From: Parcubacteria group bacterium
Lineage (GTDB): Bacteria; Patescibacteriota; Minisyncoccia; Phycocordibacterales; Phycocordibacteraceae
Length of the DNA stretch: 64,000 nt
Direction: 5' to 3'
Assembly (NCBI GenBank): GCA_028286615.1
Contig: JAQBRG010000004.1
Span: 36,480-100,479, forward strand
Shown here: positions 9,003-63,094 of the stretch, one piece after another
Layout of the letters: each line of letters starts with the position of its first letter
How positions within the stretch are numbered: the first letter of the stretch is position 1
Made by a program: the position numbers and the translations under genes
The notes under the pieces: generated by a model
The model's database searches: none
What the model was told of the DNA's origin: nothing
What the model saw: only the letters and a program-made list of their open reading frames with translations

Positions 9003-9412
9003 CGCATACAGACTCCAAAGAACTCAAGCGCGTGATCATCAATGCGAGAGAAGCCTGCCGCCTTACGCACCCTTTCGTCTAGTGACGAAGGCAGGCATGC
9101 GGCCACGTCGCGAATAGCATGACATTTTACACAAACGGCATGATGGTGGTGTGAACCAGCAAACTCAAAAAGAGCGCGGCCCTGCCCAAGATCAATACGT
9201 TTTACAAGTCCCTTCCCCGAGAACGCCATGAGCATGCGGTATGCCGTAGCCGTATCAAACGTACGCTTCCCTGCTTTTACCAGGTCTTCTACGGAAAGTG
9301 GATTCGTAGACGCAACAAGTGCTTTGAGTAAGGCTATGCGCTGCTCAGTCGCTCGCAGTCCAGCTTCGCGGAGCAATGGAACAATATCTGCTATCTCTTC
9401 GTTTCTCTTCAT
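8984..9412 (-). CDS. Fur-family transcriptional regulator (probable Zur)
   Basis: 142 aa with an HHHH...CVKC...CMRC metal-site pattern. Divergent from a ZIP zinc transporter gene. Confidence 0.75.
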   Translation of the reverse strand: MKRNEEIADIVPLLREAGLRATEQRIALLKALVASTNPLSVEDLVKAGKRTFDTATAYRMLMAFSGKGLVKRIDLGQGRALFEFAGSHHHHAVCVKCHAIRDVAACLPSSLDERVRKAAGFSRIDDHALEFFGVCMRCAKTL

Positions 9413-11426: not shown

Positions 11427-11990
11427 TTATGCAGCGCGCACCTCGCCCATTTTTAGGGTGTTACCCCTTCTCCACGTGCCATTTTCCCTGAGGAAGACAG
11501 TGAGATCACGGAAGACCATTTCGCCCTGAGGACATTCGATATCCTCAAGTGTCTTCAGAGCGCTTCTTGAGTGCCAGGATTTAATGTTGCGCGCTATGAC
11601 GATTCGCGGTCCTTTGATGCAGAGGTCTTGCTTTGGTACACCGATAAGCATGCCCAGGCTTTCGGTCAGATGCCTGCAGGTTTGTTTAACCAGATCGCCA
11701 TTGACAGACATCTCGATTGTCTCGGACTTCGCATCAAACCTTGGAGGCTCGATGTACGCGCTCACCGCATGCACTTCGAGACCAAGACGTTGAAGCCAGA
11801 CCCATACCCGACTGGCTCGTTCCAACACAGCTTGATACTTGGCCGTGATGAGCAGGTGCGGATCAACATTTGAATCGCACGTTTCTATGCCGTGCTTCTC
11901 TTGAAGAAGTCTTGTCGCTGTCTGATGGTAAAACAGCAGACACTGCGGCACCTCGAGTACCAGCTGCTGCGGATTACTGAATGTATTCAC
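11427..11990 (-). CDS. hypothetical protein (weak 2H-phosphoesterase/LigT-like resemblance)
   Basis: GTG start at 11990 preceded by AAGGGAGG. The longer ORF-track version (to 12176) overlaps tRNA-His and is rejected. Confidence 0.4.
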   Translation of the reverse strand: MNTFSNPQQLVLEVPQCLLFYHQTATRLLQEKHGIETCDSNVDPHLLITAKYQAVLERASRVWVWLQRLGLEVHAVSAYIEPPRFDAKSETIEMSVNGDLVKQTCRHLTESLGMLIGVPKQDLCIKGPRIVIARNIKSWHSRSALKTLEDIECPQGEMVFRDLTVFLRENGTWRRGNTLKMGEVRAA

Positions 11991-12055
11991 GAAAACCTCC
12001 CTTTTGTTCAACCTGAACAAAATGGTACTCCTTCTATTAAACGAATCAACTTTTG

Positions 12056-12128
12056 GGGCGGCTAGAGAGAATTGAACTCTCGATGCGGGTACCACAAACC
12101 CGAGTTTTACCACTAAACTATAGCCGCC
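12056..12128 (-). tRNA. tRNA-His (anticodon GTG), genomically encoded G-1:C73
   Basis: Hand-folded: G-1, acceptor GCGGCTA/TAGCCGC, D-arm GTTT/AAAC, anticodon stem CGGGT/ACCCG with loop TTGTGGT, T-arm GAGAG-TTCAATT-CTCTC, discriminator C. Confidence 0.8.
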
Positions 12129-31256: not shown

Positions 31257-31844
31257 CTAGCAGAGCAGGCGAGGATCGCGATGGCAGGCATCAGCCCAGT
31301 CGCCAGGGCGCGGACCCGTGGGCCAGCTGCCGTAGCTGCGGCCGTAGGAGCCGCGATGACTGCCGATGTTCGCGACCCGATCCAGCAGGTCGACGACACG
31401 GTTGGCTTGCTCGATTCTGTCGTACCGCGGCGCCTGACCTTGCGGGGAGGAGCCGTAGCCGTACTGAACAGAGGCGGTCTGGCATTCGCGGTATCCGCGA
31501 TTGTTCTGGTAGCAGTCGGAGCTGGAGACGTCGACAGGACGGTTGTCCTGGAAACGTTCTTCCTGCCGTTGCTCCGGGTGCGGTTGCTGGACCGTAAGGC
31601 CCCGCGACGTCGCCTCGGCGCGCGGCAAGTACCTGCAGCCGACGAGTTGCCCGCCGGACTGCCGGCAGAGCCAGACGTGGTCCGGCTTGGGCTCGGCGGT
31701 GCTGCCGTCGGGGCCTCGCAGGAGAACCGGGGCTTCGGCCTTCGGAGAAGGCTTGGCGGCCGGGGCTTGCTTGGCAGTGGCGGCGAAGGCGGGCGAAACG
31801 GTGATGGCCATGGAAAGAGCGGCCAAAAGGGTGAGGAATCTCAT
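31257..31844 (-). CDS. secreted Gly/Arg/Tyr-rich protein encoded in a GC-rich island
   Basis: AAAGGAG SD then ATG; signal peptide MRFLTLLAALSMAITVSPAFAATA. Local GC about 65-70% against about 48% in the flanks. Overlapping ORFs appear in all frames, as expected for high-GC sequence. Confidence 0.55.
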   Translation of the reverse strand: MRFLTLLAALSMAITVSPAFAATAKQAPAAKPSPKAEAPVLLRGPDGSTAEPKPDHVWLCRQSGGQLVGCRYLPRAEATSRGLTVQQPHPEQRQEERFQDNRPVDVSSSDCYQNNRGYRECQTASVQYGYGSSPQGQAPRYDRIEQANRVVDLLDRVANIGSHRGSYGRSYGSWPTGPRPGDWADACHRDPRLLC

Positions 31845-31935
31845 GGGAATCTCCTTTGTTGGTCCCAGATGAAGCTGTATATAAGGTACCAGAATATACG
31901 GTATTTGTCAATAGCTTCCCTTTCTCGGTGCTATT

Positions 31936-33612
31936 ATGGGCCTTATGCCTGCTCATTTTGATACGGACGCCGAAGATAAGCAGCTTGCGGGTATCCGTGA
32001 GCGCGAAGAGGAAGACCTGGCCCAGGTGCTTTCCCAGAAATACGGCTATACCTATACCGATTTAACGGCCATTCCCGTTAACGTAGACGCGCTGCGTATG
32101 ATTCCCGAGAAAGAGGCTCGAGAGGCTGAAGTTGTAGCATTTGATAAGAATGGAAAGCATATTTCTATAGCTCTCCGGAATCCCCAGAATGAGCTTCTTC
32201 CTCAGGTTGAACATGCTCTTGAAGCTCAAGGATTAATCCTTTCTCGTTTCCTTATATCCCGTAAAAGTCTCGAGAAGGCACTTGCTCGATACGAGGAATT
32301 CTCGTACGCCAATCAAAGCAAGACTGGCGTATTCGCAGTTGAAGGAGCTCAACTTGAAGCTCTTTCAAAAGAACTCAGTAGCGTAACCGTAGTGCGGGCC
32401 AAGCTTGATCAGATGTTGGACACGAAGAATGTGCAGGTCTCTCATGTGTTTGAGCTCGTGCTTGCGGGCGCATTTTCTATGCGAGCGTCCGACATACACT
32501 TCGAGCCTGAAGAAGAGACAGTACGTCTTCGCTACCGTCTTGATGGACAACTAACGGATGTCTACGCGTTCTCTCAACATACATACCAACTCATAGCCTC
32601 ACGCATAAAACTTATCTCGGGTCTTAAGTTGAATGTGCATGGGCGGGCGCAGGACGGGCGCTTCTCAGTTCCTCGCCAAGGTACTGAAGTTGAAATTCGC
32701 ACCTCACTCATTCCAGGAGCGTACGGAGAATCTTTTGTTATGCGTCTTCTTGATCCTTCTATCCTTGGTGTTGGCTTCAAGGAGCTTGGTGTCCATCCGA
32801 AGCTGCTCGAGCGTCTTGAACGAGAGATTACTCGTCCTAACGGCATGCTTCTTACAACCGGACCTACGGGTTCAGGAAAGACGACGACTCTCTATTCTTT
32901 CCTGCAGCATATTCACACTCCCGAAATTAAGATTGTTACCATCGAAGACCCTGTTGAATACCATCTTCCCGGTATTGTGCAGACGCAGACAGATGGAAAA
33001 GAATATACATTCGCATCAGGTCTTCGTTCAGTACTTCGTCAGGACCCGGATGTAATCATGGTTGGAGAAATTCGAGACTCAGAAGTTGCTGAAACTGCTA
33101 TTCAAGCAGCTCTCACAGGACACTTCGTATTCTCGACACTTCACACCAACAACGCAGCGGGCACTTTCCCACGTCTTGTAGACCTTGGGTCTGATCCTAA
33201 GGCATTTGCTTCAGCAATTTCTGTGGCTATGGCGCAGCGTCTTGTTCGTACCTTGGATCCTGAGGCCCGCAAACAAGTTCCTGCAACTGAAGAAGAGAAG
33301 AAGGTTATGGAAAGAATTCTATCAACGCTTGAGGACATGACTCTCCTTCCCTCTTCCCTTGAGACTGTGTGGGTTCCTGAGCCAAATGAAACAAGCTCTG
33401 GGTACAAAGGACGTATTGGTCTCTACGAAGCAATCTTTATGGACGAGGAGCTAGGCAACTTGCTTCGAGACAATCCAAGTGAAGGCGAGATCGCAACGAA
33501 TGTACGTCGCCAAGGTTTCCTAACCGTGGCGCAGGACGGTGTGCTCAAAGCTATTGCAGGACAAACCTCACTTGAAGAGGTGTTTAAGGTTGTTGATTTG
33601 CCTCGAGACTAG
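31936..33612 (+). CDS. pilB: type IV pilus assembly ATPase PilB (GspE family)
   Basis: Walker A TGPTGSGKTT, Asp box, Walker B MVGEIRD, His box; 558 aa. Confidence 0.9.
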   Translation: MGLMPAHFDTDAEDKQLAGIREREEEDLAQVLSQKYGYTYTDLTAIPVNVDALRMIPEKEAREAEVVAFDKNGKHISIALRNPQNELLPQVEHALEAQGLILSRFLISRKSLEKALARYEEFSYANQSKTGVFAVEGAQLEALSKELSSVTVVRAKLDQMLDTKNVQVSHVFELVLAGAFSMRASDIHFEPEEETVRLRYRLDGQLTDVYAFSQHTYQLIASRIKLISGLKLNVHGRAQDGRFSVPRQGTEVEIRTSLIPGAYGESFVMRLLDPSILGVGFKELGVHPKLLERLEREITRPNGMLLTTGPTGSGKTTTLYSFLQHIHTPEIKIVTIEDPVEYHLPGIVQTQTDGKEYTFASGLRSVLRQDPDVIMVGEIRDSEVAETAIQAALTGHFVFSTLHTNNAAGTFPRLVDLGSDPKAFASAISVAMAQRLVRTLDPEARKQVPATEEEKKVMERILSTLEDMTLLPSSLETVWVPEPNETSSGYKGRIGLYEAIFMDEELGNLLRDNPSEGEIATNVRRQGFLTVAQDGVLKAIAGQTSLEEVFKVVDLPRD

Positions 33613-34209
33613 TTAGGCGAGTCCTCGCGCTTGGCGTTCTTTGAGGAATGCATCTGCTCTTTTTTGAAGCACTCTTTCTCGCTCACTGAGCAGTTTGCTG
33701 TCCTCGTGGTACTTAGCAACAGCTTCTTGAACCTCAGAACTAAATAGTCTTAATGAGCGACTCTCCCCGAAGTTACTCGTCGTGCTTGGATTAGAATCTT
33801 GAACAAGCACACTTAGAACAGATGGATCTGAACCAAATCCTTTCTGCTCGGAAAGTAAATGCTCGATATTTTTTATACTAGAAAGAACATCTGGAGCCAT
33901 TCCGTCTTTCTCTGAACTTAGTTTCTGAAACTCTTCTTCTGCCTTTGCTGAAAAGTTACTGTTCTTGAAAGCTTTATAATTTTCTGATCTCTCGGTTGTT
34001 AATTCCGTATCTTTCTCCCAGTTTGCAGTGGCGGCAGCTTCAAGTTCCTCATGCGAAAGAGTCGAGAGGTCTCCATCTCCTACCTCATTACCTAAATTCT
34101 CTGCGACAGCTCCTTGAATAGCTCTAGCGTCTGACTTTATCTCTTCAGGACGTAGGCTTCTTGCCTGGTCTGCGTCTCTGCTTTTGAATGAAGAATTTTC
34201 AATGCCCAT
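33613..34209 (-). CDS. hypothetical protein (low complexity, charged)
   Basis: 198-aa ORF. Confidence 0.45.
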   Translation of the reverse strand: MGIENSSFKSRDADQARSLRPEEIKSDARAIQGAVAENLGNEVGDGDLSTLSHEELEAAATANWEKDTELTTERSENYKAFKNSNFSAKAEEEFQKLSSEKDGMAPDVLSSIKNIEHLLSEQKGFGSDPSVLSVLVQDSNPSTTSNFGESRSLRLFSSEVQEAVAKYHEDSKLLSERERVLQKRADAFLKERQARGLA

Positions 34210-34337
34210 AGGATAGTCGTAAGTGGTATGTAGAAATCATACCAGTTTGCTCGGAAATTGTGACTAGGACTTGCTTCGTTATTAGCTTTTTGATTTAATG
34301 GGTCCACGGGCTCACATGAGTCCATTTTCGGGGCAAC

Positions 34338-34375
34338 CCGCGACCCGCGCAGAAATGCGCGGGGTTTATTTTTTA
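34338..34375 (+). terminator. plus-strand rho-independent terminator inside the ORF-poor region
   Basis: gacccgcgc-agaaat-gcgcggggtttattttttat. Confidence 0.55.
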
Positions 34376-34418
34376 TCATCCCGGGATGCCTGCAACACGG
34401 GGATAAGATAAATATGAA

Positions 34419-34501
34419 AAAATCCCGCGCATAACCCTCCAGGCACTCCTTTCTAGAACTTAGAAAGGTGAACAGAATCGCCTGGGGAGACTCCCAGCGC
34501 A
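34419..34501 (+). repeat. 83-bp direct repeat, copy 1
   Basis: Identical over 83 bp to 35559..35641: aaaatcccgcgcataaccctccaggcactcctttctagaacttagaaaggtgaacagaatcgcctggggagactcccagcgca. Confidence 0.9.
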
Positions 34502-34544
34502 TGCGCTAACTGTAAGTACACTCTGTAGACAGACCCCTCTTTGT

Positions 34545-34580
34545 CCCCAGCAGGGGTTTCGCCAGAAACCCCTGCTGGGG
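34545..34580. repeat. perfect 18-bp palindromic hairpin (ccccagcaggggtttc-gcca-gaaacccctgctgggg)
   Basis: Seen directly in the sequence. No T-tract on either side, so it is not a terminator. Confidence 0.85.
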
Positions 34581-35558
34581 GAAGTAATTAAAGCCGTACT
34601 TTAACGGTTCCAGGAATTGAAGGAGTATATTCGCGGTATTCCATATTCATATTCGTATTAACCCTTATCTCCTCCCTGCCCCAGATAACTGTGGTGAGTA
34701 AGAGGAGAAACCACGTAGCAAGTATCAATACAGAAAGCTTAAACCAGTGCTTTTTAAGACTGGTTGGGATGTATGGTTCAGACATGATCTAAAAGTAAGA
34801 GGTTGTTAACGAGTGCACCGCCCCAAATTATGGCTCCCGACAACCTCTTACAGAAGCGAGAACCGTTTGAGACGGTGCATTCGTAAGAGGTTGAGATATG
34901 GGGCGTGTAGGGAAAGGCTAGCGTCCACACGGAAGTGAGTCGAGGTATTTTGAGTTATCCACTTTCTTATGATTCTGCATTTACGTTATACTGGTGAGGT
35001 TCAGGTGTGAAAGCACTTGAGCCCACGAGCGAAGTCTTCAGCCGAAGTTAAGCAAGAGCCTAAGAACACTACTTAACTTTCAAGACCCCAGGAGCATACT
35101 CCACGGCTGAAGGAAGATCCTTCGCCCGTGGAATGTGCTTCTGGGTTTTTGTTTAATTGGTTCCCATCAGTTCCTTGCTAGTTAGAAATTGGTGGGGGCA
35201 AGTTAGATGTAGTATGTAAATACTACACGCCGCCCCCCGCTTCGCACGGCCTGAAAGCGACGTTGGTGAAATGGTCAAAGACTCTGAAGTACACAACAAC
35301 GATGTGGAAGCGTGCCGACAACGGCCGCATCCCGACACCTGCGTTTAGACAAACTCACCCTGAGATTGTCTACAAGCAGACAGTAGTAAAGCGAACTGCC
35401 GCTCCCAAAAGAAGCAGCAGTTCGAAGTAAAAAGTCACGAAACTTTTAACCACATTGGACCCCGCGAGGGGTCTTTTGTGATTTCTATCATTCTATCCTT
35501 GAACTCAAGGTGAAGAGGCACATCTTAAGGTGGATAACGGTAGAGCGTCAAGTAAATC

Positions 35559-35641
35559 AAAATCCCGCGCATAACCCTCCAGGCACTCCTTTCTAGAACT
35601 TAGAAAGGTGAACAGAATCGCCTGGGGAGACTCCCAGCGCA
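35559..35641 (+). repeat. 83-bp direct repeat, copy 2
   Basis: Identical to copy 1. Its 5' 20 nt can pair with ggagggttatatgcgggatt at 35705..35724. Confidence 0.9.
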
Positions 35642-35820
35642 CCACATCAAGTGTGGTACCAAGAGGTCCCTGGGGAAGCGCCCTAAAGCCGTCAAGCCTT
35701 GTCTGGAGGGTTATATGCGGGATTCGTAGTTCGAATCTAAAAAAAGAAAATACCTTCTGCGGAGAAGGTACGTACAGAGCCAACCTCTGATGTGCTAGAA
35801 TGGTAGCATAGTGCAATCTT

Positions 35821-36801
35821 ATGTCAAGTACCCCTGATCCAGTCAAGATAAGAGACCAGGCGCTCGATTCAGCGCTCCGCCCTACTCTGTGGGACGAGTA
35901 CATAGGCCAAGGACACGTGAAGGCCAATGTGCAGGTGGTATTGTCCGCGGCCAAAAAGCGTGGAGACATGCCGGAGCACCTTCTTTTCTACGGACCTCCA
36001 GGTGTTGGAAAGACAACGCTCGCCCATCTTGTGGCCGCTTCTCTTGATGCCCCCCTTAAGACAACTTCCGGTGTTGCTATTGAACGCGCGGGAGACTTGG
36101 CTGCTATTCTAACGAACCTTGAACCTGGTACCGTCCTATTTATAGACGAGATACACCAGCTCTCTTCAAAGATTGAGGAGCTCCTCTACCCTGCCCTTGA
36201 GTCTGGCTCGCTAGATATTATTCTAGGCAAAGGACCTTCAGCTCGTACCGTTGAGCTCGCTCTCCCTCCGTTTACTCTTGTTGGTGCAACCACACGCGTG
36301 TCCCAACTCTCCGCTCCTCTTCGTTCCCGTTTTGGAGGAGGTGTGTATCAGCTCGACTTTTATACAGACGAAGACCTCCGCAGTATTATTCGCCGCTCAG
36401 CAGGAGTGCTCGGTCTTTCCGCTAACGACGAGGTTATAGAACGTATCGCATCGCGAAGCCGCGCAACACCTCGTGTTGCCAATGCTCTTCTAAAGCGTGT
36501 TCGGGATTATTCAGAGGTGCATGAGAGAGAACTCTCAGCAGAAGTGTGTGACCTCGCGTGTGAATTGTTTGGTATCGATTCTCTTGGACTAACCAAAGAC
36601 GACAGGCGTTACCTAGAAACTATCCGAGACTCATTTAAAGGAGGGCCGGCCGGTATTCGTGCGCTTGCTTCTGGACTCCATGAAGATCCTGAGACCGTTG
36701 AGAACGTGTACGAACCGTATCTCTTACGTATTGGTTTTATTGAACGCTCTCCACGTGGACGCATCCTCACGCAGAAAGGAAGAGACTATTTGAGTGCGTA
36801 G
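35821..36801 (+). CDS. ruvB: Holliday junction DNA helicase RuvB
   Basis: LLFYGPPGVGKTTLAHLVA ... LFIDEIHQL ... AAA+ sensor motifs. Confidence 0.95.
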   Translation: MSSTPDPVKIRDQALDSALRPTLWDEYIGQGHVKANVQVVLSAAKKRGDMPEHLLFYGPPGVGKTTLAHLVAASLDAPLKTTSGVAIERAGDLAAILTNLEPGTVLFIDEIHQLSSKIEELLYPALESGSLDIILGKGPSARTVELALPPFTLVGATTRVSQLSAPLRSRFGGGVYQLDFYTDEDLRSIIRRSAGVLGLSANDEVIERIASRSRATPRVANALLKRVRDYSEVHERELSAEVCDLACELFGIDSLGLTKDDRRYLETIRDSFKGGPAGIRALASGLHEDPETVENVYEPYLLRIGFIERSPRGRILTQKGRDYLSA

Positions 36802-36838
36802 CGCTTAAAGGAACAGACGAGACCGCGGAACACAAGCC

Positions 36839-36864
36839 GTCTGGGACGATCTTGGAACCTTTTG
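36839..36864 (+). repeat. 26-bp direct repeat, copy A (gtctgggacgatcttggaaccttttg)
   Basis: 24 of 26 identical to 37286..37311. Flanks the GC-rich cassette. Confidence 0.8.
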
Positions 36865-36967
36865 TTTACTTATGTGATCTCTTCTTACAGAATGTGCGGC
36901 ATAGAGACACTTGACACACGACATGCTTTATGGTACTCTACACATACAGTCAACGGAGGCCTACCTA

Positions 36968-37204
36968 ATGGCGCAAGTCGCTCTTTACATCAACGACACG
37001 GTGCACGTTGTGCTCTCTGAAATGGGTGCAGCTGCAGTGAACAGTTTCGACAGCGGTGCATTCCGTTGTCCATCCGGACAAGACATGGTCGCCGGCCAGA
37101 AGTTCGAGTGCATCCTCGGTGAGGCTCTGATGATCTTCGGGCCGTATGCCAGACCGGGTGTTGCGTTGTTCGCGGACGGCCACATCCATCTCGGCCAACC
37201 CTGA
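36968..37204 (+). CDS. small GC-rich hypothetical protein (possible mini-cupin-like)
   Basis: GGAGG SD 9 nt upstream of the ATG; own downstream terminator. GC about 58%. Confidence 0.45.
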   Translation: MAQVALYINDTVHVVLSEMGAAAVNSFDSGAFRCPSGQDMVAGQKFECILGEALMIFGPYARPGVALFADGHIHLGQP

Positions 37205-37218
37205 ACCAACCGCACCCC

Positions 37219-37260
37219 AAACCCATCGAATGGAGAGCCCATTTCGATGGGTTTCTCTTT
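37219..37260 (+). terminator. terminator of the cassette gene
   Basis: aaacccatcgaa-tggagagcccat-ttcgatgggttt followed by ctctttta. Confidence 0.55.
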
Positions 37261-37285
37261 TATGTGTATCCAGTCTTTGCTGGCA

Positions 37286-37311
37286 GTCTGGGACGATGTT
37301 GGAACTTTTTG
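37286..37311 (+). repeat. 26-bp direct repeat, copy B (gtctgggacgatgttggaactttttg)
   Basis: See copy A. Confidence 0.8.
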
Positions 37312-37328
37312 CAGTTATAATTCACTAC

Positions 37329-38183
37329 ATGAACACAAAGAGTCTCCAGAATGGCTTCTCTCTTCCTGAGCTCGGTCTCGGCACCTGGAAAATAGGCGGG
37401 GAGCGAGAGGCTGATACGTCACGAGATAATGACTGGATACGCTCGATTGAGGAAGCGATAGAAATCGGATACAGGCATATCGACACGGCTGAAATGTATG
37501 GAGCCGGACACGCAGAGGAGCTAATCGGTCAGTCAATCGCAGTCATTCCCAGAGAGGAGCTGAAGATCGCGTCGAAAGTATTCGCGACCAATCTTGCCTA
37601 TGATGATATTAAAAAATCTTTCTTCGCGAGCTTGAAACGTCTGAATCTCGGATATCTCGACCTTTACTACATACACGCACCGAGTGAAGACATTCCTTTG
37701 AAAGAAACCATGCGTGCTTTCGACGAACTCGTAGACGAGGGCTTAGTTAAGAATATAGGAGTTAGCAACTTCACTACGGAGCTTCTTGAGGAAGCCCAGT
37801 CATACTCCCGCAATAAAATTGTTGCGAACCAAATCGAATACAACCTTGTAACTCGAGAACAGAGTAACTACGGAGGTTGTTCAAAGATGGAATCCGAGAT
37901 ACTTCCCTACTGCCAAGCTAATGACATTCTTGTTGTGGCATATAGACCACTTGATCGCGGCATTGTTCTTGAAAAGAACCAAGTTATGGACGAAATGTCT
38001 CAAAAGTACGGAAAGACATATTCCCAAATCGCTATTAACTGGCTTATCTCTCAACAGAACATTGTCGCCATCGTTAAATCAAGTAAAGGTGCTCACCTTG
38101 AGGAAGATATGGGCGGAACTGGCTGGAACTTGGATACAGAAGATGTTGAGAGGCTGCGTCGAGAGTACCCCGCCAAGGCTTAG
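37329..38183 (+). CDS. aldo/keto reductase
   Basis: LGLGTWKIG ... IDTAEMYG ... the AKR catalytic tetrad pattern. Start taken at MNTKSL. Confidence 0.85.
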   Translation: MNTKSLQNGFSLPELGLGTWKIGGEREADTSRDNDWIRSIEEAIEIGYRHIDTAEMYGAGHAEELIGQSIAVIPREELKIASKVFATNLAYDDIKKSFFASLKRLNLGYLDLYYIHAPSEDIPLKETMRAFDELVDEGLVKNIGVSNFTTELLEEAQSYSRNKIVANQIEYNLVTREQSNYGGCSKMESEILPYCQANDILVVAYRPLDRGIVLEKNQVMDEMSQKYGKTYSQIAINWLISQQNIVAIVKSSKGAHLEEDMGGTGWNLDTEDVERLRREYPAKA

Positions 38184-38239
38184 ATTATTGCTGGCGGACT
38201 AGGGATCAAACCCTCTCCCACATTTGATATAGTGAATAT

Positions 38240-38800
38240 ATGTCAGGACACAGTAAATGGTCTCAAATAAAGCGCCAGAAAGGCGTAACGGATGCTGCTA
38301 AGAGCAAAACCTTCTCTCGTTTTGCCCAGCTCATAACCCTTGAATCCAAGAAAGCTGCAGGAAACATCTCCTCCCCTGCTCTCGCAGCTGTTATCGAACG
38401 CGCTAAGGCTGCGAACATGCCTAAAGACAATATTGAACGAGCTGTTGCTAAGGGCTCTAGTAAAGAAGCTGGCAATCTCGAACAAGTTGTATACGAATGG
38501 TATGGACCAGGAGGTGTAGCGATAATCATCGACGCACTCACCGACAACAAGAATCGAACAACCGCTGAGATAAAACACCTTATATCAAAGAACGGTTTTG
38601 AACTTGGTGCACAAGGAAGTGCAGCGTGGGCATTTATGAAATCTCCAGACGGCACCTTCACACCGAACGAACCTCTTATGGATCTTTCCCCCGAAGACGA
38701 AGCGTCTCTTGGAAACATCTTTGACCTGCTTGATGACAATGATGATGTGCAACGCGTGTTCACCAATGCCCGCGGCTACGAAAACGCCGACAGCGACTAA
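38240..38800 (+). CDS. yebC: YebC/PmpR-family protein (short, 186 aa)
   Basis: MSGHSKWSQIKRQKG N-terminus. Precedes ruvC, as is usual. Confidence 0.75.
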   Translation: MSGHSKWSQIKRQKGVTDAAKSKTFSRFAQLITLESKKAAGNISSPALAAVIERAKAANMPKDNIERAVAKGSSKEAGNLEQVVYEWYGPGGVAIIIDALTDNKNRTTAEIKHLISKNGFELGAQGSAAWAFMKSPDGTFTPNEPLMDLSPEDEASLGNIFDLLDDNDDVQRVFTNARGYENADSD

Positions 38801-39294
38801 TGCGCGTACTTGCTATAGACCCAGGGTTTGATCGCATGGGACTTGCGGTTATTGAAGGAGACCCAAGCAAGCCCAAGCACGTGTGGAGCGATTGCATCAT
38901 TCCTCCTAAGGGTTCAGTTGAAGAAAGACTCTCGCATATTCACGCCGCAGTTAGCGTTGCCATACAGGAGTACTCTCCAGAAATCGTTGCTATAGAAACT
39001 CTGTTCTGGAGCACGAATAACAAACGAAGCGCGCTTGGTGTTGCTGAAGCAAGAGGTGCAGCACTCTCGGCCGCAGGGGCTGCCGGCCTCCCTATTCTTG
39101 AATGTTCTCCTCAGCAAGTGAAGCTTGCGGTTACGGGATACGGAGGCGCAGACAAGAAGGCTATCGCAACTATGATTCCTCGCTTAATTGCACTCCCACC
39201 TAAAAAGAGGTTGGACGACGAGCTTGATGCCATCGCTCTGGCGCTCGCTGCACTTCCCCAAGCCCGAGCGCTATCCACACAAAAGACTGGGTGA
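38800..39294 (+). CDS. ruvC: crossover junction endodeoxyribonuclease RuvC
   Basis: MRVLAIDPGFDRMGLAVIE ... catalytic acidic residues. Confidence 0.9.
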   Translation: MRVLAIDPGFDRMGLAVIEGDPSKPKHVWSDCIIPPKGSVEERLSHIHAAVSVAIQEYSPEIVAIETLFWSTNNKRSALGVAEARGAALSAAGAAGLPILECSPQQVKLAVTGYGGADKKAIATMIPRLIALPPKKRLDDELDAIALALAALPQARALSTQKTG

Positions 39295-42086: not shown

Positions 42087-42587
42087 TTAGAACTCAAGCC
42101 TTGTGCCTCGTAGGAGATCGAAACCTTTGCGCAATGCTCGGATTTCATGGTCATCAGCGGGTTTGCCTGCAGATATCGCCTTTTCTATTTCATCATCAGC
42201 AAGCCACTCGAACTCAGAATGGTCGCTGGGGTGTATCTGGATATTTTCTATAGGGTCTTCAAATTGCGCAAAGTAAATGACTTCGATAGAGTGCGAGCCT
42301 TTTATATGATTTGTGTAGGTAAAAACATAAAAAGGATCGCCTACCCTGACGTTCATTCCATTCTCTTCCATGATCTCTCGCTTAAGTCCTTCGACAGGGT
42401 CTTCATCAAATTCGATATGGCCGCCAGGAAGCTCAAGAATGCCTGGCATAAACTTTTTCGTTTCTGCTCTGCGGGGCATGAATACTTTCTCTACACCATC
42501 AAAATTATGGTGGATGAAGGCGCAAGCGGTTATTACTTGCTGTCCGTGAGCTGGAGTTTCGCTATCGTGAGAGATAATGTGTTCCAT
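42087..42587 (-). CDS. NUDIX hydrolase
   Basis: GGHIEFDEDPVEGLKREIMEENG, a Nudix box. Confidence 0.8.
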   Translation of the reverse strand: MEHIISHDSETPAHGQQVITACAFIHHNFDGVEKVFMPRRAETKKFMPGILELPGGHIEFDEDPVEGLKREIMEENGMNVRVGDPFYVFTYTNHIKGSHSIEVIYFAQFEDPIENIQIHPSDHSEFEWLADDEIEKAISAGKPADDHEIRALRKGFDLLRGTRLEF

Positions 42588-43687
42588 TACTGATTCATCG
42601 GCATCACAAGATACAAGAATGACGTATCTCCTGTGCCCCGAATAATAAGAGCACGTCCAATACCGCTGGCTGAAAGATTAATACTCTCTGTACCGATAGC
42701 TCCAAGGGGTGCTGAAAGATACCTGTGGTTGAAAGAGAGCTCAACTCCCTCCCCTGTTAGGTTTCCAGTGATGCTTTCGCTCGATTCTCCAACATCTGCG
42801 TTCTGTGCCGCGAGCGTAACCTTCTTCTCTCCTGGATCAAACGTCATGCGAACCTTCTGGAAGGTATCCGAGAAAATACTTGTTCGCTTAAGTACTGATT
42901 CAAAGTCTTTCTTAAGCACTGTTGCCTCTGCAATTGAGGTCTTAGGGATAATCTGTGCGTAGTCTGGGTAGCTGGCGGTAACAAGACGAGTAACAAGCAG
43001 GCCCTGGTCCCAAGAAAACACACACTGATGGTCGTCGAGAGTAATCTTTATGTCCGTATCAGGGATAGTTTGAATAACATCAACTGCATTTCGTGCGGGA
43101 ATAAGTATTGAAAAGGCAGGAACTGCTCCAGATAGAGCTATTTTCTTCTCTGCAAGACGGAAAGAGTCTGTTGATACCGCTTTCATCATCCCTCCTTCAA
43201 CTGCAACAAGAACACTCGCAAGTTCAGGACGAACTGTTGAAGGAGATGCATAACTAACAACTGAAGACACGAGTGTACGGAAGAGTGCCCCTGGAAGCGA
43301 AAATTCTGCCGTTGGTGCGTCTGGAATAGGAAGGATTGGGAAATCCTCGTACGCAAGAGTTTTAATCGTGCTCTTGCCCGTTCCAGAGGAAATACGAACA
43401 GTGTCTCCTGAGTGTTCGAGTGTAAGAGTGCCTGTACCTGAGAAAGAAGTTGTTATCTCTCGAAGTACTTGCGCTGGAAGAGCGACAACACCCGGTTCTT
43501 TAATAGTTGCTGCAATCTTTAGATCTATTCCTGTCTCAAGGTTCGTTGCCCTAAGCTTCACTCCATCGTCTCCAGCGATAAGTGCTATTCCTGAAAGAAC
43601 AGGTAGTGTCGCAGATCTTCGCTCCGCAAATCTTGCGACTGTGTGAACTGCGTCTGCGAATTCCTTTTTATCTAAAATAATGACCAT
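42587..43687 (-). CDS. dnaN: DNA polymerase III beta sliding clamp
   Basis: 366 aa directly downstream of dnaA; three-domain clamp-like layout. Confidence 0.85.
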   Translation of the reverse strand: MVIILDKKEFADAVHTVARFAERRSATLPVLSGIALIAGDDGVKLRATNLETGIDLKIAATIKEPGVVALPAQVLREITTSFSGTGTLTLEHSGDTVRISSGTGKSTIKTLAYEDFPILPIPDAPTAEFSLPGALFRTLVSSVVSYASPSTVRPELASVLVAVEGGMMKAVSTDSFRLAEKKIALSGAVPAFSILIPARNAVDVIQTIPDTDIKITLDDHQCVFSWDQGLLVTRLVTASYPDYAQIIPKTSIAEATVLKKDFESVLKRTSIFSDTFQKVRMTFDPGEKKVTLAAQNADVGESSESITGNLTGEGVELSFNHRYLSAPLGAIGTESINLSASGIGRALIIRGTGDTSFLYLVMPMNQ

Positions 43688-43923
43688 ACGCTATTACTAT
43701 TAGGGGTGTTGATAGTGGGGACAGCTCATTTGGTCGCGTACCTACAGCATAGATTCTAGGGAGCCTTTTGTACAACCTGTTAGAAACGAGCCTGTAACAC
43801 CCTGCTTCCCTGGGGGTAACTAGGTAGGGGTTATTTTGTCCCCAACACTGTCCTTCATTGTCCCCATACTTCTTCTTCAGTTTTCCTTTAGTTATCCTCC
43901 CCCTTATACACAGAGTTATCCCC
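43688..43923. promoter_or_regulatory. candidate oriC: cluster of DnaA-box-like 9-mers between dnaA and dnaN
   Basis: TTGTCCCCA at 43836 and 43858, TTATCCTCC at 43892, TTATCCCCT at 43916, plus an inverted TGTCCCCAC near 43711. One more TTATCCCC lies on the other strand at about 45305, between dnaA and rpmH. Confidence 0.5.
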
Positions 43924-45285
43924 TTATACGAGAAGTGTTCGAATATCTGCCACCTCCTTAGCTAGTTCGGTATCGTCCACAATCTCTCTTTTAACCTTCT
44001 CGCACGAGTGAATAACGGTAGTGTGGTCGCGTCCTCCAAGCTTCGAACCAATGGTTGGATACGAAACACTGAAGTCTTCACGAAGGATGTACATAATCAC
44101 CTGACGAGGGCGTACAACCTCCCTTCTGCGTGTCTTTTCATACACGCTTTCTTCATCTATTCCGTAGTACTCAGCAACCTTAGACACCACATGCTTAACA
44201 GACACAGTCTTCTGAGGACGAGAGAAGGAACGAAGAGACTGACGGATCTCTGCTAGGTCTGGTGGCACACCTTTAACTTGGGTGTGACAAACAACTGAGT
44301 TAATAACCCCCTCAAGCTCTCGAATGCTTCCTGAAATAGAGGTGGCAATGTGCTCAACAACCTCGTCTGAAAGAATAACGCCATGAGAAGCTGCCTTCTT
44401 TCGTACGATTTCCATACGAGACTCAACATCTGGCTCGCTAATATCAACCGTCATGCCGCTCGCAAGACGTCCACGAAGACGATCTGCAATATCAGGGATA
44501 GAAACAGGTGCGCGGTCTGAAGAGAATACGATCTGCTTGTTGTTGTCGTACAACGAGTTGAACAAATGGAAGAGCTCTTCCTGGAATTTGTCCTTCTTAG
44601 AGAAGAACTGCACATCATCAATGATTAACAGGTCGAATTGGCGGTACTTCTCCTTGAAACGATTGGCAGTTCCTGCTTGAAGCGAGTCTGTGTACTCGTT
44701 TCCGAAGCGGTCTGAGGTTAAGTAGAAGACCTTTCTGTTTGGATACAGCTTCTTGTATTGGTTTCCCATGGCCTGGATGAGGTGGGTCTTCCCTCTTCCC
44801 GTGTCTCCATAGATAAAGAATGGGTTGTACGTTATTCCTGGACGCTTTATAGCTGCTTGAGCTGCCGTGTGTGCGAGTTCGTTGAAGGTACCAACAACAA
44901 ACGTGTCGAAGGTGTAGCGAGGATTGAGGTTGTCGCTCTTGTTGATGTAGAAGTCGTCCAAAGGAAGCTCAGCAACCTGCTGCATAACAGGACGGCGCAC
45001 TTCTTTTGGCTTCCTACGGTCATCTTTAACGATCTGGTACTCAATATTTCTGTACTCGTGCGAAATGCTACGGATAGATTTAAGAAGAAGCGTGTGGAAT
45101 TTCTTTATGTACCAGTCTCGGAAGAACTGGCTTGGTACGCCGATGTATACAATGCCGTCTTCGATCTTAACTATAGAGCTGTCACGGAACCAGGTGTTGA
45201 AGTTCGCAGGAGATATAGACAATTCGACTTGGGAAAGAACGTATTCCCACAACTCACGCACATCAAGTCGATTGATAGTGTTCAT
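43924..45285 (-). CDS. dnaA: chromosomal replication initiator DnaA
   Basis: GDTGRGKTHL Walker A ... LIIDDVQF ... C-terminal DNA-binding domain. Confidence 0.95.
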   Translation of the reverse strand: MNTINRLDVRELWEYVLSQVELSISPANFNTWFRDSSIVKIEDGIVYIGVPSQFFRDWYIKKFHTLLLKSIRSISHEYRNIEYQIVKDDRRKPKEVRRPVMQQVAELPLDDFYINKSDNLNPRYTFDTFVVGTFNELAHTAAQAAIKRPGITYNPFFIYGDTGRGKTHLIQAMGNQYKKLYPNRKVFYLTSDRFGNEYTDSLQAGTANRFKEKYRQFDLLIIDDVQFFSKKDKFQEELFHLFNSLYDNNKQIVFSSDRAPVSIPDIADRLRGRLASGMTVDISEPDVESRMEIVRKKAASHGVILSDEVVEHIATSISGSIRELEGVINSVVCHTQVKGVPPDLAEIRQSLRSFSRPQKTVSVKHVVSKVAEYYGIDEESVYEKTRRREVVRPRQVIMYILREDFSVSYPTIGSKLGGRDHTTVIHSCEKVKREIVDDTELAKEVADIRTLLV

Positions 45286-45377
45286 TTATCCACAAGTATA
45301 CCGGGGTTGGGGATAAAGTGCGAAAGCGAGGTATTTCTTGCTCCATTTGATGCAACCTGTTAATATCCTGTGTATAT

Positions 45378-45515
45378 ATGCCTAAGCGAACATACCAGCC
45401 CAAAAAGAAGAAGCGAGCCCGAACCCACGGATTCCGTGCCCGCCTAGCAACCGCTGCTGGCAGGAAGCTCCTACTTCGCCGTCGCCGTAAGGGACGTTCG
45501 AAGCTAACAGTCTAA
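45378..45515 (+). CDS. rpmH: 50S ribosomal protein L34 (not in the ORF track; 45 aa)
   Basis: [45 protein letters not shown]. Confidence 0.9.
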
Positions 45516-45856
45516 TGATTCCCCGTCGATTGCGCCTTTCCCGGGCGCATTTTGCGTCCATTCCGGGAAAACCAGGAGAAAAACGAGCCGCTAGCCCGCA
45601 TTTCTCTGTATCGGTGTGTAAAAGCGAGGGAAATGGCGGTTCTGCTGCCGTTATCTCTAAAAAGGTTGAGAAGACCTCGGTTGGAAGACATCGCCTGAAA
45701 CGCCGTGTTTTGGCCGTTTTGGCTCCTTTGAGCTCTAAAAACCAGGCAGTTATTGTGTTTGCTCGAGCTGGAAGCCAGAAACTCCCCTACTCCCTACTAA
45801 AAGAGGAGCTTTTCGAGCTTCTAAGTCGCGTTATGGGCGGTTCGCGGTTAAACTAA
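45515..45856 (+). CDS. rnpA: RNase P protein component
   Basis: Basic 113-aa protein immediately after rpmH, with an RNR-like motif. Confidence 0.8.
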   Translation: MIPRRLRLSRAHFASIPGKPGEKRAASPHFSVSVCKSEGNGGSAAVISKKVEKTSVGRHRLKRRVLAVLAPLSSKNQAVIVFARAGSQKLPYSLLKEELFELLSRVMGGSRLN

Positions 45857-45863
45857 AGACCAC

Positions 45864-46595
45864 ATGATCTCTTTCTTCCATACCGTTCTTTACATACCTA
45901 TATATAACCTTCTCATCTTCCTTGTGGACGTTATCCCTGGAGGCGATATTGGCCTCGCTGTTATCGCAGCCACCATCATCGTAAAGGTTGTAATCATGCC
46001 GCTCTCCTTCGCTGCTCTACGCACCTCCCGCGCGGTTAAGGCTATAGAGCCAGAACTCAAGACACTCAAGGAAGAGTACAAGGACGACAAGGAGGGGCTC
46101 GCAAGAGAAACCTTCGCTATCTATAAAAAGTACGGCATCAATCCGTTTGCTGGCATCCTCACTCTTTTCATTCAGTTCCCTATTGTCATCACGCTCTACT
46201 GGGTATTCCGCACCGAATCTCTTCCAGGTGTTGATGCGTCACTTCTCTATTCATTCATTCACGCACCGGACACCGCCTCCCCTCTTTTCCTTGGTCTCAT
46301 TCTTATAACAAGTTCGAGTCTTATTCTTGCAGTACTGGTTGGCATAACTTCATACATTCAAGCAGTGTACGCACTTCCCCTTCCAGCAAAGCCGGAGCCA
46401 GGAGCAAAGCCAAACATGCAGGCAGACATAGGGCGCGCCATGGCACTCCAGATGCGCTACATACTTCCTATTCTCACTGCAGTTATTGCATACGCATCAG
46501 CTGCGCTCGCTCTCTATTTCATAACAAGCAATCTTCTTAGTATCTTCCAGGAATATATTGTTCGTTTGAAGAAACTTCCTACGCCTTCAGTCTAA
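45864..46595 (+). CDS. yidC: YidC/Oxa1-family membrane protein insertase (short form)
   Basis: Five TM segments with a conserved loop; follows rnpA. Confidence 0.8.
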   Translation: MISFFHTVLYIPIYNLLIFLVDVIPGGDIGLAVIAATIIVKVVIMPLSFAALRTSRAVKAIEPELKTLKEEYKDDKEGLARETFAIYKKYGINPFAGILTLFIQFPIVITLYWVFRTESLPGVDASLLYSFIHAPDTASPLFLGLILITSSSLILAVLVGITSYIQAVYALPLPAKPEPGAKPNMQADIGRAMALQMRYILPILTAVIAYASAALALYFITSNLLSIFQEYIVRLKKLPTPSV

Positions 46596-61909: not shown

Positions 61910-63037
61910 GTGTCTTCGGGACAGAATGCATACTGGATTCCTGGCGCCGTAATCGCCGCAAGCCTACTTCTTGGGATAGGAATCGCCCTAACACCGCACT
62001 CTGCAGGTGCTTTCTGGCCATTTTCTGTAACAAACGCCGCTTCTGGTGTTGATTCTCCTATTATTCATGACAGCAGCATCGATCTTTTGGATGCTGCAAC
62101 CAATTCGGATCCCAATCCAAGCAAGGGAGAGGGCTCCATTGCCATGACTGAGGGATCTGCCCTTATCTCAAACGCGGGTCCTGAGGGAACGGTTTCTGAC
62201 GCAGATCATGGCTCTTCTGGTCAAATTAGTACGTACGTAGTGCGTGATGGGGACTCAATCTCAGAGATTGCAGACACTTTTAACGTTTCTGTTAGTACCA
62301 TCCTTTGGGCAAACGGCCTTACAGCCAAGAGTGCCATTAACCCAGGCATGAAACTGGTTATCCTCCCTGTCTCAGGTGTCAGGCATACTGTTGCTAAGGG
62401 CGAGACGCTTGCGGGTATTGCAAAGAAATATGGCGCAGATACTAGCGATATCGGTTCTTACAACGGCGTGGACGAGGATGCCTCTGTTGCTGTAGGCGAC
62501 GTGCTTATAATTCCTGGTGGAGAAATACAAGCTGCGGCAACAACCAAGGCCAAGACTTCTACAACTAAAACAGCCGCTAAGAGCACCATTAAGACCGGAG
62601 GCAGTCTCTCATCAGTACAGTCAAACCCATTCAAGGGAGGATCTGGCGCTGCTCTTCCTGGATACTTTGGAAATCCTGTTCCGGGCGGACGCCTAACCCA
62701 GGGAGTACACGGCTGGAATGGTGTTGATATAGGCGCTCCTTCAGGTACCCCAGTGTACGCCGCAGCTGCTGGAACCGTTATTGTCTCTCGTGTAGGTGGC
62801 TGGAACGGAGGATACGGCAACTATGTGGTTATAGACCATGGTAACGGCACTCAAAGCCTCTACGCGCACCTCTCAGCAGACAGTGTTTCCGTTGGCGAAA
62901 CAGTAAGCAAGGGTGAAACTGTCGGTTCTGTGGGCAAGACAGGAGAAGCAACAGGTTTCCATCTCCACTTTGAAGTCCGAGGTGCAAAGAACCCATTTGC
63001 AGGCTGTGCGGCTATGAGTTTCTGTAGCCCAGAATAA
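61910..63037 (+). CDS. LysM-domain M23 peptidase
   Basis: Two LysM repeats (YVVRDGDSISEIA..., HTVAKGETLAGIA...), then an M23 HxxxD ... HLHFE zinc motif. Confidence 0.85.
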   Translation: MSSGQNAYWIPGAVIAASLLLGIGIALTPHSAGAFWPFSVTNAASGVDSPIIHDSSIDLLDAATNSDPNPSKGEGSIAMTEGSALISNAGPEGTVSDADHGSSGQISTYVVRDGDSISEIADTFNVSVSTILWANGLTAKSAINPGMKLVILPVSGVRHTVAKGETLAGIAKKYGADTSDIGSYNGVDEDASVAVGDVLIIPGGEIQAAATTKAKTSTTKTAAKSTIKTGGSLSSVQSNPFKGGSGAALPGYFGNPVPGGRLTQGVHGWNGVDIGAPSGTPVYAAAAGTVIVSRVGGWNGGYGNYVVIDHGNGTQSLYAHLSADSVSVGETVSKGETVGSVGKTGEATGFHLHFEVRGAKNPFAGCAAMSFCSPE

Positions 63038-63094
63038 GCTTTGGTAAAGCAAAACGGCCCTCTAGAGAGGGCCGTTTTGCTTTACCTTCCAATA

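Follow-up and report, generated by a model that had tools for sequence, protein, structure and literature searches.

In integron arrays, and in clusters of attC sites lacking integron-integrases (CALINs), mostly single, promoter-poor and mutually unrelated accessory genes stand in rows of one polarity, with a site 3' of most open reading frames (ORFs). Bacteria of the Candidate Phyla Radiation (CPR) have tiny genomes and an obligate symbiotic lifestyle, and their gain and loss of accessory genes is poorly understood. Surveys of Patescibacteria report many genomic islands, and one that was checked for these terms, PMC12455944, mentions no tRNA, repeat, integrase or cassette. Here we describe a locus of integron-like build in a 64,000-nt stretch of DNA from a Parcubacteria group bacterium (contig JAQBRG010000004.1, positions 36,480 to 100,479; the whole stretch is called the window below). 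In the spacer between ruvB and yebC, two direct repeats, DR1 and DR2, bracket the gene for a 78-aa protein, and an aldo/keto reductase (AKR) gene follows. DR1 and DR2 are copies of a conserved, strand-oriented site of about 35 nt that borders small accessory-gene cassettes in integron-like CPR arrays, and on balance we favour the reading that these cassettes are exchanged by site-specific recombination. The family of sites has sharp edges, arrays of uniform polarity, unrelated single-gene intervals, abutting stop codons and a hotspot at tRNA-Gln/dnaX; both window genes are absent from the site in relatives, one strain pair differs by a motif-bounded replacement, and one cassette is shared between loci with different neighbours.

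The likeness to integron arrays and CALINs extends to cassettes of about 0.4-1.3 kb with similar cargo families, to a chromosomal location, and to differences between related strains. The site itself differs, being a 35-nt motif conserved in sequence where the integron has a 57-141-nt attC hairpin conserved in structure, and it lacks a GTTRRRY/RYYYAAC pair, while IntI, attI and Pc are absent from its surroundings; the arrays are also unlike integrons in their tRNA-Gln anchoring, in the 27% of genes that are reversed, and in their CPR hosts. With tRNA islands (accretion of cis-mobilizable elements, CIMEs, and integrative and conjugative elements, ICEs; tycheposons of Prochlorococcus) they share anchoring 3' of a tRNA, repeats that are oriented as the tRNA and by eye resemble its 3' end, partial tRNA duplications, and integrase-less modules that could be mobilised in trans. 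The repeat described here is, however, a distinct and more conserved sequence with a 5-nt insert rather than a copy of the host tRNA 3' end, a module is one gene of ~0.5 kb and not a multi-kb element, the tRNA-proximal end is free of integrase genes, and secondary sites exist (ruvB-yebC).

Other tandem or modular systems offer partial parallels. Staphylococcal cassette chromosome (SCC) and psi-SCC elements at rlmH (orfX) are likewise tandem cassettes with short direct repeats at one chromosomal hotspot, and many SCC units have no recombinase of their own and rely on a large serine recombinase in trans; such a gene lies near five of the arrays described here. SCC units nevertheless measure 3-60 kb, their repeats of about 15-18 nt come from the end of a protein-coding gene, and their CcrAB dependence is proven, whereas the serine recombinase link here is positional only (5 of 123 loci). 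The promoter early stem-loop (PeSL) cassettes of T4-type phages and 'mobile promoters' also place a short conserved intergenic sequence around unrelated small ORFs, with possible modular exchange by homologous recombination; PeSL repeats are functional promoter-plus-terminator units in phage genomes, in contrast to a motif that has no fixed -10 or hairpin and resides in cellular chromosomes. The XerC/D-dependent pdif modules of Acinetobacter plasmids are small, lie between sites of ~28 nt and use a housekeeping recombinase encoded elsewhere, but pdif sites are dyad-symmetric for XerC/XerD and alternate in orientation, whereas the motif described here is asymmetric and uniformly oriented.

The repeats of the window had been described from the sequence as a near-identical 26-bp pair, and both the positions (36839-36864 and 37286-37311) and the match (24 of 26, ungapped) are correct; the identity reaches 29 nt (36836-36864 and 37283-37311, 26 of 29). 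With up to three mismatches allowed, DR1 and DR2 are the only copies in the 64-kb window, and 100 shuffles of the window gave none. A degenerate pattern, YYTGGGACGAWSTTRGAACYTTT, built over DR1, DR2 and a copy in a related genome (L010), matched at least 120 contigs when scanned against a metagenome collection, against a roughly estimated chance expectation of a handful. The figures for the family, the arrays, the tRNA anchor and mobility given below rest on the matches listed (at least 120 metagenome contigs, 145 pattern instances, 123 loci), from contigs with GC contents of 31-65%. When the 145 instances are aligned, the left flank, which the pattern had left unconstrained, is conserved as ttGCTGGCnG, and conservation is at background level on both sides of a segment of ~35 nt. 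The oriented consensus is TTGCTGGCnGTCTGGGACGA[T/A]GTT[G/A]GAAC[C/T]TTTT; its core, GTCTGGGACGA-GTT-GAAC, is 97-100% invariant, and a profile search found ~240 copies in the 123 loci. About 10 of the 145 copies continue into a conserved right-hand block, TTGCAACATATGGTAGGTTCTGTCCAGA, followed by a Shine-Dalgarno (SD) sequence and the ATG of varied ORFs; this block has two possible readings, a promoter or one arm, the second, of an imperfect hairpin of ~52 nt.

The motif has no match in Rfam 15 at E<=1 (window 33500-38500 and 10 motif-bearing loci) and none in phage or plasmid collections; the three matches in IMG/VR are all coding, inside C5 methyltransferase genes, and a phage or plasmid element was rejected on these grounds. 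At five loci (L100, L134, L189, which equals L206, L205 and L207) the 23-nt core is read in frame as VWDDV[G/R]TFDG...PCQ within phage-type C5 DNA methyltransferase genes; the flanks there are unlike the motif, and these matches are probably a pattern-driven coincidence. Among 238 copies the four most variable internal positions are 9, 12, 21 and 30, all multiples of three, and all of them would be synonymous if the motif were read in reverse as K K V P T S S Q T A S. A protein-coding origin was rejected all the same, since the codon phase has a rough probability of 0.05-0.14 and no ORF traverses the motif. No description of the motif was found in the searchable literature, full text and sequence strings included, and the cassette architecture in CPR bacteria is widespread and apparently undescribed.

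More than one motif copy is present at 61 of the 123 loci, in mixed orientation at none of them, and the largest arrays hold 8 copies in 4.8 kb. The 121 motif-to-motif intervals have a median length of 556 nt (interquartile range 435-734) and contain a single ORF in 88 cases; the DR1-DR2 spacing of 447 nt is typical of them. A CRISPR-like array was rejected on the spacings, which range from 339 to 4769 nt. Most cassette ORFs (73%) are antiparallel to the motif as written, with stop codons overlapping or abutting its T-rich end. At locus L139, for example, ORFs end at 1101, 3529 and 4078 and motif copies start at 1102, 3530 and 4079, and for ~56 of the 145 copies an ORF of at least 70 aa terminates within 20 nt of the motif. 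The remaining 27%, including both window genes, run parallel to it. Motif polarity stays constant even where the cassette gene is reversed, and this independence of gene direction argues against a gene-expression signal. The cargo consists of mutually unrelated accessory genes (NUDIX in five cases, GNAT in three, isochorismatase, AhpC, NADAR, APH, DAGK, UDG, radical SAM and others), and the genes flanking the arrays are housekeeping genes. A LOOT RNA (RF03000, 68 bits) was seen at L172 952-1065, a few kb from a five-copy motif array.

Among the 26 tRNA genes in the 123 motif-bearing loci, 22 are tRNA-Gln, all on the same side of the array and on the opposite strand to the motif. In the reading direction of most cassette genes tRNA-Gln comes first, then the cassettes and then the reverse-complemented motif, and a recurrent synteny places the array between ABC-F / HI0933-like genes and tRNA-Gln-dnaX. 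In L082, where tRNA-Gln has the same configuration, the proteins have orthologues in more than 16 loci, with identities of 48-90%. The 22 cases are not independent, though they do define tRNA-Gln/dnaX as a conserved hotspot. L192, L085, L191 and L082 have partial copies of tRNA-Gln downstream of the tRNA itself. Seen by eye, the motif in reverse complement, GTTCCAAC-ATCGT-CCCAG-ACTGCCA-G-C, is similar to tRNA-Gln from the T loop through the T stem and acceptor strand to the discriminator (18 of 23 positions plus a 5-nt insert), and a motif variant in L215 has ATTCGAAC, the reverse complement of the canonical T loop. Derivation of the motif from a tRNA-Gln 3' end is a lead, not a result. A crossover at 'CGAT' splitting the motif in L215 was considered and dropped; the supposed left halves are full-length variants with the right part ATCCGAAC / ATTCGAAC.

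The features of the ruvB-yebC interval in the window are the following.

35821-36801, + strand: ruvB (Pfam RuvB_N / AAA_lid_4 / RuvB_C), left border of the insertion hotspot
36836-36864, + strand: DR1, motif copy GCCGTCTGGGACGATCTTGGAACCTTTTG, 5'-truncated, without the left part TTGCTGGC
36909-37262, + strand: cargo module of cassette 1 (promoter-ORF-terminator), by homology to L082 9943-10296
36911-36916, + strand: -35 hexamer TTGACA, seen in the sequence
36934-36939, + strand: candidate -10 hexamer TACTCT, 17 nt 3' of TTGACA
36955-36959, + strand: SD sequence GGAGG, 8 nt before the ATG at 36968
36968-37204, + strand: small-gene ORF, 78 aa (coding 36968-37201, stop 37202-37204)
37219-37254, + strand: terminator hairpin, perfect 12-bp stem 37219-37230 / 37243-37254, T run to 37262
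37276-37311, + strand: DR2, full-length motif copy TTTGCTGGCAGTCTGGGACGATGTTGGAACTTTTTG
37316-38183, + strand: cargo of cassette 2, AKR (Pfam PF00248, E 9e-61)
38188-38213, - strand: DR3 (probable), TTGCTGGCGGACTAGGGATCAAACC on the + strand (38188-38212), tRNA-Gln 3' end in reverse complement
38240-38800, + strand: yebC (Pfam), right border of the insertion hotspot
38800-39294: ruvC, directly after yebC

The interval was compared by a RuvB-anchored scan with ~35 Paceibacteria/Kaiserbacteria-type genomes (RuvB identity 71-88%). The order ruvB-yebC-ruvC is kept across these relatives, with usual gaps of 15-60 nt, so that the genes are contiguous or nearly so in most. Neither the small gene nor the AKR gene is present in the ruvB-yebC gap of any of the ~35, and both genes in the 1.44-kb interval of the window are therefore inserts. 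Other relatives carry other inserts there (an EEP-like nuclease, NYN-domain proteins, an IS200-type TnpA and others), and the gap is an insertion hotspot. In one of them, L010, the same gap contains a single motif copy (E 6.5e-10) on which a 204-aa gene ends, with a 33-nt match to DR2 that includes its left flank.

DR1 is the leftmost site of the array, with the ruvB stop codon 35 nt upstream, and it matches the profile at 36836-36863 (E 7.9e-8, profile positions 9-36). DR2, which matches at 37277-37310 (E 7.4e-12), is a perfect full-length family copy; its left part, TTGCTGGC, lies outside the search pattern and still agrees with the family consensus. A terminator T run lies 13 nt upstream of DR2 and the -10 hexamer of the AKR gene 4 nt downstream. 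Neither DR1 nor DR2 folds into the imperfect hairpin that a minority of family copies form. A Logan contig break within DR2 (37305) was considered as a sign that the motif is multi-copy in the sample, an argument weakened by a further break at 37718, which is free of repeats.

The homology of the window to L082 (67% nucleotide identity overall) runs from the TTGACA promoter to the terminator T run, and bounds so placed indicate that the conserved unit is promoter, ORF and terminator together, 36909-37262. The 29-nt repeats flank this module at 44 nt on the left and 20 nt on the right, the full-length motif lying 13 nt to the right. The -35 hexamer, the 5' untranslated region and the SD region can be aligned with L082, where the -10 differs (TAGAAT); the TTGACA and TACTCT pair scores slightly under the threshold of a promoter scanner, which reported no promoter-like site over 36700-37450. 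At the terminator, 37219-37262 and L082 10254-10296 are identical at 40 of 43 positions. Such a match within a region of 67% identity is unusually strong conservation for an intrinsic terminator. Most of the original prediction's description of this unit stands, namely the TTGACA-like -35 element, which aligns with L082, the strong terminator, and the GGAGG sequence, whose distance to the ATG is 8 rather than 9 nt; the ORF encodes 78 rather than 79 aa. Its GC content of about 58% applies to the ORF (57.8%, the 98.9th percentile of 237-nt windows) but not to the whole inter-repeat segment, which has 52.4% (87th percentile) next to flanks of 50.2% and 47.4% and a window mean of 49.1%.

The NCBI gene call for the small gene is 93 aa long, from the ATG at 36923; its homologue P0002 begins at the Met of the 78-aa form. 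A word-indexed search of 5.8 billion proteins returned the gene itself alone, annotated as a Parcubacteria hypothetical protein, and a HMMER search of 1.8 billion representatives returned a single true homologue, P0002 (79 aa, E 1.4e-15), which is collinear from the same start Met at 51% identity by search and 49% pairwise, with His, Cys and Asp residues conserved. The 78-aa protein has no match in Pfam, PHROGs or a PDB profile search, and its AlphaFold (AF2) model, with a predicted local distance difference test score (pLDDT) of 59, is too low in confidence for a fold search. The small gene is real and nearly an orphan. A non-coding RNA within the GC-rich segment was rejected, as Rfam gave no match and the full-length homologue with the same start favours coding. 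The P0002 gene lies in L082 between degenerate motif copies at 9308-9330 and 11593-11619, next to tRNA-Gln (12026-12097), a partial tRNA copy (11957-12002) and dnaX; the only homologue of the small gene thus sits inside a canonical tRNA-Gln-anchored array.

The AKR gene has a TATAAT hexamer at 37316-37321, an ATG at 37329 after a 7-nt gap (a leaderless-type layout) and a stop codon at 38181-38183, and its start is identical in the NCBI call (P0006). Orthologues with 70% identity occur in L209 and L215, each with an adjoining motif variant. The L209 gene is preceded by a motif variant, GTATAAT, 7 nt and the ATG, the same layout as DR2, TATAAT, 7 nt and ATG in the window, and a second variant follows its stop codon; in L215 a variant lies 55 nt past the stop codon, with three further copies on the contig. 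The AKR gene had originally been taken for a resident flank, and its absence from the ruvB-yebC gap of all ~35 relatives overturns this: it is itself an inserted cassette. DR3 lies between the AKR stop codon and the yebC promoter (TATAGT 38228-38233, ATG 38240) and covers the T loop, T stem, acceptor and discriminator of tRNA-Gln (profile positions 49-72); it is a weak remnant in a window with no tRNA-Gln gene. The equivalent syntenic site matches the tRNA-Gln profile with E 0.0066 in L010 and E 0.51 in L005, and by eye a similar sequence is present in the insert-free relative L003. We therefore read the locus, between ruvB and yebC, as DR1, 78-aa gene, DR2, AKR, DR3: a two-cassette array in a secondary tRNA-Gln-like site.

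Comparisons between loci give indirect evidence of exchange at the motif. L145 and L183 are 99-100% identical on both sides of a block that is 2125 nt long in L145, with two further motif copies, and an unrelated 2201 nt in L183; the differing block begins and ends at the left edges of two successive motif positions. L118 and L200 have one cassette in common from motif to motif, 82% identical, and their neighbours differ. In the pair L102 and L187, homology breaks off within a motif or at its right edge. Five of the 123 loci have a large serine recombinase gene 1.7-5.4 kb from the array, with side and strand relative to the motif the same each time (L165 2869-4194; L141 111-1568; L174 6334-7830; L135 11680-12255; L172 1-495), and it is only a candidate for a trans-acting enzyme.

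Recombination of the att type is the best fit to these data because it accounts for the uniform polarity, sharp edges, abutting stops, unrelated cargo, tRNA anchoring, partial tRNA copies and motif-bounded strain differences. That the recombination is site-specific is an inference from such patterns, as are any enzyme and any crossover position assigned to it. The main array of a genome would stand at tRNA-Gln/dnaX, its reverse-complemented motif pointing like the tRNA, and the window would hold a secondary two-cassette array in the ruvB-yebC spacer, where the closest relatives have a tRNA-Gln-3'-like remnant. Cassettes would be gained, lost and swapped by conservative site-specific recombination between sites (att-like tandem accretion), the recombinase being supplied in trans from elsewhere in the genome or by a helper element. 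A wider proposal, which we put forward tentatively, is that this is an unrecognised CPR cassette-acquisition system parallel to integrons, with a 35-nt site, possibly tRNA-Gln-derived, a main array at tRNA-Gln/dnaX, secondary arrays, and a remote recombinase that moves single genes across hosts of 31-65% GC.

A number of observations weigh against site-specific exchange as we describe it. The breakpoints are inconsistent, falling at left edges in L145/L183 and inside or at the right edge in L102/L187, and there is a single clean strain-pair replacement. The ORFs tested between about -8 kb and +11 kb of the window locus contain no recombinase domain, and no integrase or recombinase is among the 25 most frequent Pfam families listed for 93 cassette or terminal and 54 flanking ORFs of 16 arrays. 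A second att half-site was looked for without success at the large serine recombinase loci, and most arrays lack the gene. The motif is without the dyad symmetry of classical tyrosine- or serine-recombinase core sites, and DR1 lacks the site's left third. The motif-bounded interval that holds the small-gene module in L082 also contains four other genes, and the module is thus no minimal cassette there. As for the anchor, many tRNA-Gln loci are orthologous and the 22 of 26 are not independent events; the tRNA-Gln profile gives no match at E<=1 on the motif, DR1 and DR2 included, and its match to DR3 (E 0.14) is weak alone.

The main rival, which we regard as unlikely, gives the motif another primary role, such as that of a protein-binding or insulator site between transcription units, and makes the shuffling a by-product of homologous recombination between its ~35-nt copies after natural transformation, as in PeSL cassettes. 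The motif does lie between transcription units, often right after a terminator hairpin and ahead of a promoter, and a dedicated recombinase was not found at the arrays or in the window. For RecA-mediated exchange some 35 near-identical bases are about the least that suffices, and competence is widespread among CPR bacteria; the window has a pilB-like type IV pilus ATPase gene, and the strain-pair breakpoints fall at no single fixed position. Such a role leaves itself and the strictly uniform array polarity unexplained, however, and near-invariance over hosts of 31-65% GC requires a strong sequence-specific constraint; abutting stops and tRNA-Gln anchoring, moreover, are hallmarks of att-type sites. 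A narrower regulatory explanation, in which the repeats are a shared promoter element (-35/UP) or operator co-regulating the small gene and AKR and the arrays are similarly regulated operons, seems improbable. It can draw on DR2, which contains TTGGAA and ends 4 nt before the AKR TATAAT, on the like arrangement of the L209 orthologue, and on the ~10 of 145 copies that read TTGGAA-18 nt-TGGTAGGTT before the SD and ATG. Yet the family has no fixed-distance -10, information stays under 0.35 bits on the right-hand side of the motif except for one T, and the TTGGAA-TATAAT spacing at DR2 is only 11 nt, where sigma-70-type promoters have 16-18 nt. For the 73% of ORFs that end on the motif in antiparallel orientation a promoter there would be antisense, and motif polarity does not track gene polarity; DR1 lies 104 nt upstream of a gene with its own TTGACA promoter, conserved motif-free in L082. 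The original prediction had itself allowed that the 26-mer might be a common promoter or ribosome-binding-site motif genome-wide; it is common across genomes but does not behave as either.

Two mechanisms proposed with the original prediction fare worse. A true integron array (CALIN) with an overlooked attC is very improbable, for all that topology, cassette size, cargo (NUDIX, GNAT, isochorismatase, APH) and a site 3' of most ORFs recall sedentary chromosomal integrons and a minority of sites fold as an imperfect two-stem hairpin of ~52 nt. The conserved site is 35 nt long, lacks the R''/L''...L'/R' partner of attC, and in more than 90% of copies has no inverted-repeat partner; GTTGGAA / GTTAGAA misfits GTTRRRY at position 7 (A, not Y), there is no separate inverse core, and conservation of sequence rather than structure is the opposite of attC. 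Among the families listed, no IntI-type integrase lies in or beside the 16 arrays, and there is none near the window locus. Scarcely credible is a target-site duplication by a MITE-like (miniature inverted-repeat transposable element) or transposon-borne element of ~0.45 kb upstream of a resident AKR gene. Direct repeats around a compositionally distinct single-gene unit had suggested it; the same 35-mer pre-exists, however, in at least 120 unrelated contigs with unrelated flanks and in one orientation per contig, and the ends of 36865-37282 have no terminal inverted repeats, only the terminator and a chance pair reaching into AKR. The AKR gene, missing from the site in all relatives, is not resident, and DR2 extends leftwards to the consensus while DR1 does not, which is unexpected for a duplication. 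Duplications of 26-29 nt are also far longer than those of known transposases. What survives of the original prediction is its central idea, a self-contained inserted single-gene unit with boundary repeats: the unit is missing in ~35 relatives, in most of which ruvB adjoins yebC. The cassette idea is right and the proposed mechanisms are not.

The surroundings of the locus have features of their own. Neighbouring genes in the window are polA, tsaE, pilB-like, ruvB, AKR, yebC, ruvC, PBP, NUDIX, dnaN, dnaA, rnpA and yidC; dnaN, dnaA, rnpA and yidC (42587-46595) lie 5-9 kb downstream of the hotspot, which places it near a probable replication origin. More than one mechanism is at work in the ruvB-yebC hotspot: the inserts of L028 and L030 are followed by a second, displaced ruvB 3' end (L028 8230-8301 and L030 ~6290-6346), the L030 insert contains an IS200-type TnpA, and at 36802-36818 in the window a weak 17-nt echo of the ruvB 3' end (14 of 17) comes immediately after the stop codon. 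AKR (37316-37331) and yebC (38228-38242) both have TATAAT/TATAGT 6-7 nt before the ATG without an SD sequence, and relatives keep the TGnTATAGT-ATG layout ahead of yebC, which suggests that leaderless mRNAs are common in this lineage.

Just upstream of ruvB, at 35561-35724 on the + strand, lies a candidate structured RNA, ~165 nt in length and closed by a long helix (minimum free energy -79.7 kcal/mol, z -6.6); it is conserved in ~35 relatives, has 22 predicted pairs with compensatory changes in a 14-sequence alignment, and has no Rfam match at E<=1. A perfect 83-nt direct repeat (34419-34501 and 35559-35641, 1140 nt apart) forms, with its downstream copy, the 5' part of this RNA candidate, so that a 1057-nt insert (34502-35558) apparently entered the RNA gene and duplicated its 5' end. 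This insert, with three hairpins and a membrane-type ORF of 65 aa (34588-34785, - strand), is a second repeat-flanked insertion beside ruvB, and its repeat differs from the motif. A terminator-like hairpin region at 34324-34372, upstream of the 83-nt repeat, matches L028 7775-7825, inside the ruvB-yebC insert there (86% over 51 nt). Farther away, a marginal Rfam match to STnc70, an enterobacterial small RNA, at 62941-63085 (42 bits against a threshold of 40) coincides in part with a perfect 21-nt inverted repeat (63043-63086), and it is probably a false positive caused by a terminator. Within ~700 nt at 31257-31961 there are three overlapping long ORFs (195-226 aa) on the two strands, in a region whose composition may be unusual; the one tested there (31257-31841, - strand) has no Pfam match.

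A conserved, searchable 35-nt border marker would let the accessory cassettes of these bacteria be catalogued from metagenomes and would allow the recombinase to be identified by phylogenetic profiling. It would also supply a defined att-like sequence for genetic tools in a phylum that is hard to manipulate. If the motif were instead regulatory or an RNA, it would still call for an explanation, since few non-coding elements seen in these genomes are as conserved. If our reading is true, an integron-like architecture arose in CPR bacteria with a different kind of site.

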